Shown in pieces: positions 11,965 through 60,796 of a stretch of 64,000 nt of DNA. The stretch spans positions 252,402,001 through 252,466,000 of the forward strand of contig OZ024743.1 in assembly GCA_964016885.1 (NCBI GenBank), given 5' to 3'. Position numbers and translations under genes: made by a program. Numbering within the stretch: the first letter of the stretch is position 1; each line of letters starts with the position of its first letter. A model generated the notes under the pieces. It had not been told where the DNA came from, ran no database searches, and worked only from the letters and a program-made list of their open reading frames with translations. This stretch comes from Eledone cirrhosa. Lineage: Eukaryota.

Positions 11965-12116
11965 TTGAAATATATATAATGAAATAAATATGGTTTTATA
12001 AATATAGTTTCCATTTATTAATATCGTATATCTACTCCAAATATTTGTCGAGTGCTTTATATCAGTTATAAAAATATTTGCTTGTTGTATCCCAACAATT
12101 TAAATAAAACTTTTGC

Positions 12117-12220
12117 ATATATATATATATATATGTGTATATATACATATATATATATATATATATATATATATATATATATATATATATATATATATAT
12201 ATATATATATATATATATAT
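12117..12220. repeat. (TA)n microsatellite, one of more than 20 (e.g. 32066-32322, 32500-32556, 38802-38847, 41309-41385, 47206-47260, 56119-56178, 58488-58550)
   Basis: Directly visible. Confidence 0.98.
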
Positions 12221-12346
12221 GTAGGAGGTGAGTTTTATTGTAGTACAATACAGCAATGCAGAAATCGGATAAGTAGCACTCTACAGTTTGTAGGGCTGGA
12301 GTATAAATAATATATAAAATCAAAAGATGGTTAAAAGAGTTCCATG

Positions 12347-12417
12347 TATTTTATTATGCGCATTTCAAAAACAAATATCATCATGCAATAACATTTGCGT
12401 TATCGTCAGATAAAATA
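12347..12417 (-). ncRNA. Type-I hammerhead ribozyme in a PLE-derived pLTR
   Basis: Minus strand: TATTTTAT CTGACGA [stem II region] GAAA TGCGCA TA ATAAAATA. 8-bp stem I, palindromic stem III ATGCGCAT, AUA cleavage triplet. Confidence 0.8.
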
Positions 12418-13150
12418 GGGAGACATGATATGAAGGTTAAAAAACACTTGTGAATAGTGCAGTTTTAAATCAACATATGAAAAGTAGTTTTAGATTGATG
12501 TGTAATATTTGGAAAAAAATTGAGGGAGGCGGGGTTGGAAATGATGAAAAAGAGGAGGAGATGAATGAGAGTAAAAAGTGGAGGGGGAGGAGTATAATGA
12601 GGAAGGATGAGATAGGAGGAGAGATGGGTGATAGAGAGAGAGAGATAGCTTTTATAACTGAGAAAAATATATTGTTTTACATAGAGAGGTTAAAAAAACC
12701 GTTGGAAGATAATATATAAATTAAAAGAATTTGAAAATTAACGAAGAGAAAAATTTTAGAATAATGTTAAATTAAGGTTTGTTTATTGAAGGGTTTAATA
12801 ATATGTGCAATGAAAAGAAAATGTTAATATGTATTAAGAATAATATTTAAGGGTTTAATAATATGTGCGATGGAAAGAAATTGTTGATATGTATTATTAA
12901 AAAATATAAAAATATAACAATAGTAATGTAATTAAGGATATATTGTGAAAAGAATATTATATATATATATATATATATATATATATATATACACAACAAC
13001 AAAAGAGGGAACTCCAACCCTATCCAATGTTGTAACCACAAATCCAATAAAAAACTACTCTCTGAACAAACAAAAAGATCTTTCTTTTTTAGCCATGAAC
13101 CTGGCAAAAGAGATAGAGAAAAACATTTTAGCCATCACCCAACACAATCC

Positions 13151-13820
13151 TTGCTGTCACTAACACACAATCACAAAACAAGCCCCCTGCTTCAGTCAAA
13201 ACCAGCCACCACACTAGCCTCCACATTCTTACTCAATACACAAGGTATCAGCCCAACCATCAATGCACAGAAATGGAAGATCCAATTCATTGAGGATTGG
13301 GTTGGTAACCATCCATTTCACATCCCCTTCTTCATTCTTACTGAGACCCACCTTGATAACTCCCACTTGGAGGCCGAAGTAAGAGTGAGAAATTTCAAAT
13401 GTGCGGATCGTGTTGACAGAAGAAAGGGTAGAACTGCCATTTTCCTGCATGATTCCTTTACGGCAGATGGCAACGCAACATTCTCTAATGGATACTGTGA
13501 ATCAGTCACTGTGCTCAATAAAGCCAATGACCTGACATTAGTTGGGCTCTATAGGCCACCACAAACACCCATAATCTGCTTCAAAGAATGCCTCAACAGT
13601 ATTAAATGCATTATTAAACAGTGCCATTCTAGCAACATACTTTTGATGGGAGACTTTAATCTACCCTGTGTCGATTGGTCTACATGTAGTTTGAAACCAG
13701 GCTCCACAGCCTCAACCACTGACAAAGAGGCTGTCGAGTCACTTCTTGACTTTATGAATGAGTTTTTCTTGTCCCAACTTGTCCTTGCACCAACGAGGCA
13801 TCAGAAGAACATTGATCCCC
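13151..13820 (+). pseudogene. APE endonuclease fragment of a CR1/L2/Jockey-group LINE
   Basis: LNTQG, LTETHL, DRVDRRKGRTAI, GLYRPP, LMGDFNLP, SQLV..PTR motifs; truncated, no RT downstream. Confidence 0.85.
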
Positions 13821-58551: not shown

Positions 58552-58960
58552 TAGTATAAAGAAAACGAAAAATCAGTGATGCATCTGGACTTAATTTATT
58601 GCGTGTTACAATTGTTTCGCTGTCAGGTAGATCGAGACATGGTCCCTGTATGGATCTGGCTGATTCTACGGCTGTAGGTTCTATCAGACACGGGTAGTTT
58701 GGTCGGAGCAAATTTTATTATTCCGAACGAACTACCCGTGTCTGAAAGAACCTGCAGCCGTAGAATCAGCCAGATCCATACAGGGACCATGTCGCGAGCT
58801 AACTGCCGGCGAAACAATTGTAACACGCAATAAATTAAGTCCAGATGCATCACTGATTTTTCGTTTTCTTTATACTATCTACACTTTACTCTGCTGAATA
58901 TCGAGTGCTAATTTTGGCATACCGCCTATGGAAGCACCATAGCTACCATTATACAAAACT
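58552..58960 (+). mobile_element. Hairpin-plus-tail element (arms of about 155 bp)
   Basis: IR 58552-58706 / 58721-58877, tail 58878-58960, (TA)n flanks. Confidence 0.88.
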
Positions 58961-58981
58961 ATATATATATATGTATATATA

Positions 58982-59191
58982 TTAGAAAATGAGTTTTTTT
59001 TACAAAATGAAAAATAACCCAGGTGTTCTACACGAGTGAAAGTATAAGGACAAAAGATGAAATCGAAAATGCAACTGTTCTCTTTTAAAAAAAAATATAT
59101 ATATTTATTTATTTATTTAAAGGAACCAAATATATATATATTTAAAAAAAAAGACTCCAGTTGCATTTTCGTTTCATCTTTTTTCCTTATG
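58982..59191 (-). mobile_element. Mini hairpin-plus-tail element, arm related to 41228-41303
   Basis: IR ATAAGGACAAAAGATGAAATCGAAAATGCAACTG / CAGTTGCATTTTCGTTTCATCTTTTTCCTTAT. Confidence 0.7.
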
Positions 59192-59254
59192 TAATATAAA
59201 TATATATATATATATATATATATATATATATATATGCTTATATATATATATAAT

Positions 59255-60590
59255 AATAATAAAAAAATGTTGAGAGGAAGAACACGAGTTAGGATATATA
59301 TATATGAAAACAGGGAGAAAGAGACGATTATGAGGAAGAAAAATATATTTTTTTCCTTTTTTGTTTCTCTCTCTTTTTTCTGGGTTAGAAAATGATTAAA
59401 ACGAAATGTTTTACTTTGTGTGAAGTGTTAAGGTATTAGTTGATTTATTTATTATTTAACAATAGCATTTATTTATATATTTAATTATTGTCTATTACCG
59501 GTTTCATCATTTATATGCATTATCAAATGATAGTGAAATGTATTAGTGTGGTGTCGCATATGTTAAACAGAAGGTGCAGAAAGAATAATGTTATTTACAA
59601 ACAAGGTTTAAGAAGTGAAAAGAAAAAAGAAAAAGGAAAAAAAAAACGTGCATAATGTGGAACGTAAAAAGTCAATGTGGAAGAAAAAATAATGTTATTT
59701 ACAAGCACAGTCATTGAAGTTAAGCAGATCAAAATGTATTAATATAGCAAGAGTGCTTAGTTGAACCATGGTTCCGTGATGGAGGCAAATGGTGGACTGA
59801 GGTTTGATATGATTTCCCTTTTTAGAGTGTTAATATGCAGGGGGAAGCAATTCTTGCTGGGTGATATTTAATTTATTTAAGAAAAAGGATTAGGTAGGGT
59901 GTAAGGGAGGTAATTCTTGTAAATGTTTGATGGTTTGTTGCAGTTTTAGATTGGTCCGAGTTTTAGAGCATTGAGTAGTGGTTGAAATCTATTAATGAAA
60001 TGTGTTTCCTTATTTGTACGTTGGATGAAAGTAGCGTTGTCTATGAATTTGTAAATGGGGAAAATTTTAAAGTTTGGATGTTGGTTGAGAGCACAATTGG
60101 CGATATGTCCACTAAATGCAATCTTTCTGTATTCCTGTATTTTAATTTGTGATTTATGGACGGTCATACATTGACGGAGGATGTTTTTTGTCTGTCCTAT
60201 GTAGTGCTCTTGACAACCTGAGCAGGTCGAAACATAGATAAGGTTTTCAGATGCACATGTAAAGTTGTGTTTAACTGTGAAACGTTGTCCTTGTTTAAAA
60301 TGGAATGTTGAACCTGCTATTAGATTTATGCATATGCCACAGTTGGGCCTTCCGCATTTTGTTACTGTAGGGTTCATTGTGAGGGTTTGTTGGATTTTGG
60401 CTTGTGTGAGGATGTTTAAATAATAAATAAATCAACTAATACCTTAACACTTCACACAAACTAAAACATTTCGTTTTAATCATTTGCTAACCCAGAAAAG
60501 AGAGAGAGAGAGAAACAAAAAAGGAAAAAAATATATTTTTCTTCCTCATAGTCGTCTCTTTCTCCCTGTTTTCATATATATATATATATA
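59255..60590 (-). mobile_element. 5'-truncated PLE with inverted arms (about 59295-59459 / 60416-60585)
   Basis: The arms flank a GIY-YIG ORF; decayed hammerhead (TTGATAA...GAAACCGGTA) near 59490-59535. Confidence 0.85.
59946..60377 (-). pseudogene. PLE zinc-finger linker and GIY-YIG endonuclease (Neptune-like)
   Basis: CGRPNCGIC...FTCASENLIYVSTCSGCQEHYIGQT...H...ETHFINRFQPLLN. Confidence 0.88.
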
Positions 60591-60796
60591 AAACAATTGT
60601 TCTCAGTATGGTGAATTAACTGTTGTGTAACCACTTCCAACTAACTCGTCCCATGGACTGAGTGCTCTACCACTACGGATATTACCTTCTAGTGTTCTAC
60701 GACTATATATATATAAGCATATATATATATATACATACATACATACATATATATATATATATATATATATATATATATATATATATATATATATAT

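Follow-up and report, generated by a model that had tools for sequence, protein, structure and literature searches.

Twin bulged hairpins in the leader of Hydra-type Penelope-like elements and their possible role in marking both ends of an insertion

In Hydra-type Penelope-like elements of Eledone cirrhosa, a small bulged hairpin stands twice in the leader ahead of the start codon, and in nearly every two-armed insertion one end maps a few nucleotides (nt) upstream of one copy (hairpin A) and the opposite end upstream of the other (hairpin B). The stretch from which this was worked out comprises 64,000 nt of forward strand (GenBank assembly GCA_964016885.1, contig OZ024743.1, positions 252,402,001 to 252,466,000; hereafter the window) and is AT-rich animal DNA, crowded with microsatellites and retroelement fragments. 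A preliminary description of it had reported a conserved ACTC...(TC)GAGTRCT stem at the start of the tails of dissimilar element families, and had proposed a shared cis signal for reverse transcriptase (RT) binding, priming or 3'-end definition. Enrichment of the motif, its coupling to element boundaries and the dissimilar tails in which it lies all support such a signal, as a reading of sequence. Probably each hairpin docks an RT, which then uses one end of a cut (TA)n target as its primer; to this reading, twin priming in a programmed form, we would give a probability of about two in three.

The motif itself is secure. All eight of the 9-mers quoted for it are present at their coordinates and strands, and ACTC lies 11-17 nt upstream of GAGT at seven of the eight sites and 32 nt upstream at site 42440. 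Enrichment over shuffled sequence was borne out by window shuffles, by a genome-wide count of the reversed pattern and by evenly spaced stretches. The pattern ACTC-N10-20-GAGTRCT occurs seven times in the window against 0.41 expected (300 local dinucleotide shuffles, maximum 3), and with a TA run 30-80 nt downstream the count is 8 against 0.16. Across the 3.0-Gb genome, the tighter TCGAG form has 26,572 matches and the reversed pattern 328. In 80 evenly spaced 10-kb stretches, a (TA)n run was found 20-80 nt 3' of the motif in 46 of 51 matches, at a distance that is family-specific; the reversed pattern gave three matches in these stretches, none within 400 nt of (TA)n. The form first given has to be corrected: the conserved unit is RCTC-Y...R-TH-GAGY, often GCTC/GAGC, and the trailing RCT is present in only 17 of 26 hairpins. 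As RNA, the core reads RCUC-Y...R-UH-GAGY, a bulged hairpin with a helix of 4 bp, a 3'-side bulge of 2 nt whose first base is U, an inner stem and loops of 6-108 nt. An Rfam scan of the window returned 76 weak matches, mostly to microsatellite microRNA models and none at gathering threshold. Several published Hydra hammerheads have ACTC-N-GAGT as their stem III. An identity of the present motif with hammerhead stem III was rejected, as it sits about 65-120 nt beyond the hammerhead core where a core was found and has no core of its own.

The carriers belong to one clade. The family c6 element of the window (minus strand, 43794-46472) encodes an RT followed by a C-terminal GIY-YIG endonuclease, as do intact relatives, and it shares with these an N-terminal RWK motif and DKT instead of DKG. 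Hydra-type translations have a CxCx5C linker, lack CCHH, and show CxxC and CxH flanking conserved E and N residues. RWK, DKT, CxCx5C and a GIY-YIG domain without CCHH are markers of the Hydra clade in the accessible parts of its description (Craig et al. 2021, PMC8557442), and the likeness extends to the (TA)n targets, to the inverted arms with a one-sided tail and, in families where a core is found, to the hammerhead. All motif families that could be linked to an open reading frame (ORF) have a Hydra-type ORF, and motif-bearing elements insert into (TA)n. In this respect the original reading was incomplete, as the families that it called dissimilar form a single clade, Hydra. The hammerhead core is present in c5, c6, c11, c13, c14, c15 and other families; in 10 of 21 representatives no core turned up within 380 nt of the start codon, and the window has no Rfam hammerhead match. 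A search of viral contigs gave no relative.

Complete leaders reveal that the signal is duplicated. A Hydra N-terminus pattern that is blind to the motif matched 2,833 places in the genome and none in the control. Leaders were taken from 70 of the first 100 N-terminus places and from other loci, giving 96 N-termini in 19 clusters. The complete order is hammerhead, hairpin A, tail, hairpin B and ATG, with hairpin B 17-65 nt upstream of the ATG; in this genome, the prevailing form is ACTC/GAGT for A and GCTC/GAGC for B. A B-type 3' strand stands ahead of the ATG in 16 of 19 clusters, as against 1.0 in shuffled sequence. The core equals its own reverse complement and the loci contain inverted arms, so a reverse-complement control (17 hits) lacks independence; shuffles took its place. 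The preliminary description covered only half of the signal; complete leaders carry two copies, one for each element end. Hairpin B also stood at its predicted place in the family of site 12275, in that of site 33766 (412 pattern matches) and in that of site 58901 (16), most of the matches listed for the latter two being the expected junction.

Insertion ends track these two copies. Junctions with (TA)n were placed on 15 leaders from 10 clusters, each with both copies, after exclusion of low-complexity matches and of those shorter than 45 nt or less than 80% identical. The 286 junctions divide into 131 at 0-16 nt 5' of A, 134 at the same distance 5' of B, and 21 elsewhere; the A and B windows make up 10% of the leader, yet hold 265 of the 286. 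The positional coupling of motif to boundaries is thereby established, and the evenly spaced sample alone gives 90 of 94. The offset from the hairpin is mostly 6-10 nt and is alike for A and B. At most junctions the leader sequence is TAT or ATA, and such micro-sites are used in 32 of 42 cases inside the A and B windows versus 11 of 253 outside. The short end precedes A and the long end precedes B, so that the tail equals the A-B spacing (65-172 nt here), and it follows that the tail opens with the motif and that the untailed arm halts just before ACTC. An inverted arm is present in the window at six of the eight original sites, terminating about 2-10 nt ahead of ACTC, and none was seen there for sites 12275 and 60658.

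The pairing of ends is strict. Among two-armed insertions at loci that were not selected by motif, 36 are AB, 2 AA and 0 BB, with 6 having one unassigned end (p = 3e-9); adding six families whose positions were set by eye gives 43 AB, 2 AA and 0 BB. In 16 long insertions, the coding long arm terminates at A in 8 and at B in 5, and 3 have no ORF. Of 50 short insertions, 32 have both arms running to the same point (within 10 nt); in 15 others the A arm extends further 5', and in the remaining 3 the B arm does so. Several of the B arms of short insertions halt at or near hairpin A.

The following features of the window bear on these points, listed by position.

8837 to 9548, minus strand: ORF-less tandem element with GCTC-type hairpin A at 8905-8933 and 9520-9548 and a long-loop hairpin B at 9338-9442
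9812 to 9840, minus strand: third GCTC-type A copy of the ORF-less family, a motif match
10322 to 12116, no strand assigned: probable two-armed c5 insertion; minus arm 10322-10384 terminating at the A site, plus arm 11755-12116 with a B-site end, hammerhead core 11812-11852 and nested insert 11859-11966
12034 to 12056, plus strand: hairpin A of Hydra family c5; tail extends to the (TA)n junction at 12116
12275 to 12302, minus strand: hairpin A of family c14; tail terminates at (TA)n at 12220, no inverted arm seen
32322 to 32500, no strand assigned: small palindromic insertion of family c18; left end is an A site, right end a B site
32428 to 32454, plus strand: hairpin A in the small c18 palindrome, with a 2-nt deletion
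32557 to 33822, no strand assigned: two-armed c18 insertion with hairpin A at 33748-33774 (plus); left arm terminates at the A site
42390 to 47205, no strand assigned: near full-length Hydra element of family c6; its RT-endonuclease ORF is frameshifted and lies on the minus strand (ATG at 46472); tail terminates at the B site (42390), inverted arm 46597-47205 at the A site
42440 to 42482, minus strand: hairpin A of family c6 with a 32-nt spacer; GTT is a single-copy change from the family's GCT
43794 to 44561, minus strand: endonuclease of the c6 element, within the frameshifted RT-endonuclease ORF
46498 to 46519, minus strand: hairpin B of family c6, GCTC/GAGC, finishing about 26 nt before the ATG
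47272 to 47720, no strand assigned: palindromic c5-type insertion; hammerhead cores 47330-47365 (minus) and 47529-47565 (plus), hairpin A 47635-47658 (plus)
58552 to 58959, no strand assigned: palindromic insertion of family c12; hairpin A 58888-58909 (plus), paired arms terminating at 58877
59946 to 60377, minus strand: Neptune-type GIY-YIG endonuclease, a negative control whose family lacks the hairpin
60591 to 60703, plus strand: family c10 fragment; hairpin A 60644-60666 with a 1-nt bulge, nested in the TA run that ends a Neptune arm

The GCTC-type copies at 8905-8933, 9520-9548, 9812-9840, 9338-9442 and 46498-46519 had been overlooked in the original list of sites. Complete family c5 leaders with A, B and ATG were found elsewhere in the genome, and family c14 loci (L216 and L209) run on into B and an ORF. 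The Neptune endonuclease at 59946 was considered as the owner of the 60658 motif and rejected, since the site belongs to a piece of a Hydra element that lies within the TA run of the Neptune element. In the case of the ORF-less tandem element, the tail end maps about 8 nt before B, and the minimum-energy fold yields the B helix and bulge (z -2.6). We infer from the motif alone that it belongs to Hydra, and it looks like a non-autonomous, retrozyme-type derivative; a decayed hammerhead-like stretch also lies within 8837-10068 (minus strand).

These families are old. The first 480 residues of 11 family proteins are 32-57% identical in pairwise comparison (median 43), and none of the 55 pairs of tails is similar outside the motif, so the tails are not simply recent homologs. 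Among 26 hairpins, pair 1 is G-C in 16 and A-U in 10, and pair 5 is C-G in 17 and U-A in 9. Pair 6, which the scan did not demand, is Watson-Crick in 21 of 26 with four pair types, plus 3 G-U, as against 6.5 in shuffles that ignore relatedness; pairs 7 and 8 weaken (14 and 12 of 26 paired). On a tree of 17 proteins, drawn from this genome and from metagenome loci, the A pair 1 and pair 5 states need 7 changes where the minimum possible is 4. Stem pairs thus swap in compensatory fashion, repeatedly on the tree. A GCTT/AAGC hairpin at L205 was rejected as such a swap; it is a single-copy change, with nearly all of 16 other listed copies GCTC/GAGC. In family c13 (L226, L163), a small, bulge-less GCAC/GTGC hairpin replaces B, and here too the long end is found 7-8 nt ahead of the hairpin.

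The motif is also present beyond this genome. One metagenome scan gave 26 loci, and the flanks of 17 were examined; these contain 13 hairpins versus 1.5 in shuffled sequence and 0 on the opposite strand. Twin GCTC/GAGC copies stand ahead of the ATG in four metagenome families (L253 with L256 and L258, L254, L255, and L268), a single hairpin is seen at L257 and L263, and the remaining examined loci have no hairpin in the available flank. In published Hydra consensus sequences inspected by eye, three of six carry the motif: Hydra-1_Ajap has two copies, and Hydra-2_Ajap and Hydra-2_Amil have one each. The motif is doubtful in Hydra-1_Crog, and no copy was seen by eye in Hydra-1_Amil or Hydra-1_Obim.

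These observations can be combined into a mechanism. Hairpin A and hairpin B would each dock one RT-endonuclease, and each docked RT would start copying a few bases 5' of its hairpin. The endonuclease would cut both (TA)n strands, and of the two cut ends one would pair with the UAU patch ahead of A, the other with that ahead of B, probably on a single RNA molecule. From each start, copying would proceed in the direction of the RNA 5' end; the trailing B enzyme would either displace the first complementary DNA (cDNA) or halt at site A, and the two cDNAs would be joined head to head. The predicted outcome is a pair of inverted arms, with a tail on one arm that equals the A-B spacing and begins with hairpin A. 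That two cDNAs are primed from two target ends is how we would read the AB pairing together with the arm lengths.

An alternative that we regard as unlikely is a single priming event before B, after which the cDNA folds back and second-strand synthesis halts and joins at A; B would then be the start and A a stop read as DNA. Such fold-back would yield strict AB pairing and has a precedent in the self-priming proposed for palindromic Penelope junctions (PMC3846280, in its accessible part). It demands, however, a B arm at least as long as the A arm, and the A arm exceeds the B arm in 15 of 50 short insertions and in 8 of the 13 coding ones; A and B are also alike in structure and in their 6-10 nt offset. 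Because an A arm broken off inside the ORF cannot template the tail, both arms must come from RNA in those insertions, which is evidence against simple fold-back. The 32 of 50 short insertions that are symmetric, near-perfect palindromes also fit fold-back, and twin priming and fold-back may both operate.

Slightly less likely again is that the hairpins set the starts on two separate RNAs, perhaps paired through their hammerheads. The usual overlap of the arms would arise from two templates without strand displacement; Penelope hammerheads are thought to act as dimers (PMC4209133) and dual priming has been proposed for L1 (PMC2837659), both as given in the accessible parts of these papers. A free choice of sites predicts that about half of insertions are AA or BB, though, and 2 of 38 were observed, so that the strict pairing favours one RNA over two; the B arms that halt at or near hairpin A look as if blocked on the same RNA. 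We consider it improbable that the motif acts as DNA or in expression (as an endonuclease site, promoter element or translation control) with ends tracking nearby TA-like micro-sites. RCTC...GAGY is an inverted repeat in DNA, B lies close to the ATG, and the tail of Drosophila Penelope is required for DNA recognition by its endonuclease (as reported in the accessible part of PMC11167929); but the 6-108 nt spacer, the one-sided bulge, the G-U pairs and the inner-stem covariation indicate a single-strand fold, micro-sites distant from the hairpins are seldom used (11 of 253), and the AB pairing is left unexplained. A functionless relic, with tails as diverged homologs and the motif left over by ancestry, is highly improbable: ORF-linked carriers do all fall in one clade, but their proteins are only 32-57% identical, no tail pair of the 55 is alike outside the motif, compensatory swaps recur, and the motif is retained in metagenome and published elements.

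Several points weigh against programmed twin priming and must be kept in view. The canonical B strand is missing in 3 of 19 clusters; A and B were chosen from scan candidates after preliminary end maps had been viewed; and six representatives with fewer than two scanned copies were excluded from the 286 junctions. The perfect pairing at positions 1 and 5 is partly built in, because the scan demanded it. The hairpins are weak: in 4 of 6 folding tests the expected register was the structure of minimum energy (z -0.6 to -2.6). Of the 13 coding insertions, 5 have B as their long arm, which requires that the leading enzyme drops off or that the RNA is tandem. Finally, a Neptune family has two ends without the motif, so tails in general do not need it, and the motif would therefore be the Hydra solution to a wider rule. 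Programmed twin priming can be cast in a stronger form, in which it is obligatory and RNA-programmed: an RT-endonuclease dimer sits on two tandem hairpins of one RNA and makes one cDNA from each end of a double-strand cut, inverted arms and tail are the normal product, and the same two-site logic with other folds holds in all tailed Penelope-like elements. This stronger form we hold tentatively, at a little under even odds.

The motif is absent from the 3' ends of 30 loci of the Neptune family (CX2-5CxxC linker; window 59306-60573) and from two complete leaders (L310, L315), which represent a single Neptune family. Its two ends lie at internal (TA)8 and internal (TTA)5 tracts, and a tail is present in 11 of 30 loci. 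Its leaders contain an 8-bp helix with a CTC/GAG core that opens some 6 nt past the first site and closes some 8 nt past the second, a little ahead of the ATG; this helix is perhaps another means of marking two start sites.

Other observations concern individual families and the surroundings. Family c7 (L141-L143, L062) is very young, with many identical copies of a 340-amino-acid stretch; it forms tandem arrays of 6.67-kb units with a microsatellite-rich 3' region of about 4 kb, and its hairpin inner loops are 71 and 108 nt. Family c18 likewise has young copies in tandem. Locus L061:2-8000 holds an open frame of 2,663 codons with low-complexity repeats. Window positions 56710-56935 and 58019-58487 are inverted arms with clean hammerhead cores (56834-56859, 58292-58317) in which the scan found no hairpin. 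A short dispersed repeat (11859-11966, 29684-29861, 61427-61553) enters TATATA with target duplication, and in the c5 insertion it lies inside the hammerhead. Pieces resembling a long terminal repeat retrotransposon, with matches to DUF7041, RT and RNase H, occupy 983-3100 and 6308-6766, and a nearly intact ORF resembling a long interspersed nuclear element, with endonuclease, RT and then a PHD finger, lies at 22090-25111 (minus strand).

Bulged or boundary stems that set where an RT starts or stops on an internal template are known from hepadnavirus epsilon and the telomerase template boundary. The epsilon element serves as the template for protein priming and is used singly, whereas Hydra elements would be primed by cut genomic DNA and carry their hairpin as a tandem pair. 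Another comparison is the green anole Poseidon element PAc (Frangieh et al. 2024, PMC11167929), described here from the accessible part of its report. Reverse transcription of PAc begins at two internal positions, one at either limit of the tail; the enzyme needs RNA lying 3' of them, both target strands undergo cutting and extension, and a dimer is predicted. The two internal starts, the extension of both strands and the need for 3' RNA lend support to the frame of what we propose for Hydra. The PAc start sites, however, lie within one AC-rich stem-loop inside the ORF, the RCUC/GAGY motif is not found in the figure text of its RNA, and that part of the report gives no defined binding motif and no per-insertion A-B pairing. 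In L1 twin or dual priming, as set out in the accessible part of PMC2837659, each target end primes a separate cDNA to give an inverted insertion, as we infer for Hydra; the first L1 site is the poly(A) tail and the second is internal with an internal deletion, whereas both Hydra sites are fixed beside a structural repeat and the arms mostly overlap, unlike the L1-type product, which has non-overlapping arms and a second site that can vary. For the Hydra clade itself, the accessible parts of PMC8557442 describe the hammerhead as the only conserved RNA element, and the twin hairpin goes unremarked in the consensus files. No description of the motif, of a duplicated end-tied RNA element or of the AB rule was found in the literature covered, which leaves out subscription papers, Repbase notes and parts of the supplements of PMC11167929 and PMC8557442. 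Already known, then, are the clade of these elements and, from one Poseidon element, two internal start sites; apparently new are the conserved RNA element, present in two copies that are each linked to one end, and the AB pairing rule.

Penelope-like elements are the closest retrotransposon kin of telomerase, and their choice of RNA template and the origin of their inverted arms and one-sided tail have long been puzzling. The sole in vitro study defined two start sites and no recognition element. A small motif, present twice per leader and conserved across phyla, makes the marking of start sites sharply testable, and the young intact Hydra families of this genome are suited to biochemistry. 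For curators, the motif supplies a rule for calling element ends and a marker by which ORF-less derivatives can be recognized. If true, twin hairpins would explain the one-sided tail of Hydra-type Penelope elements.

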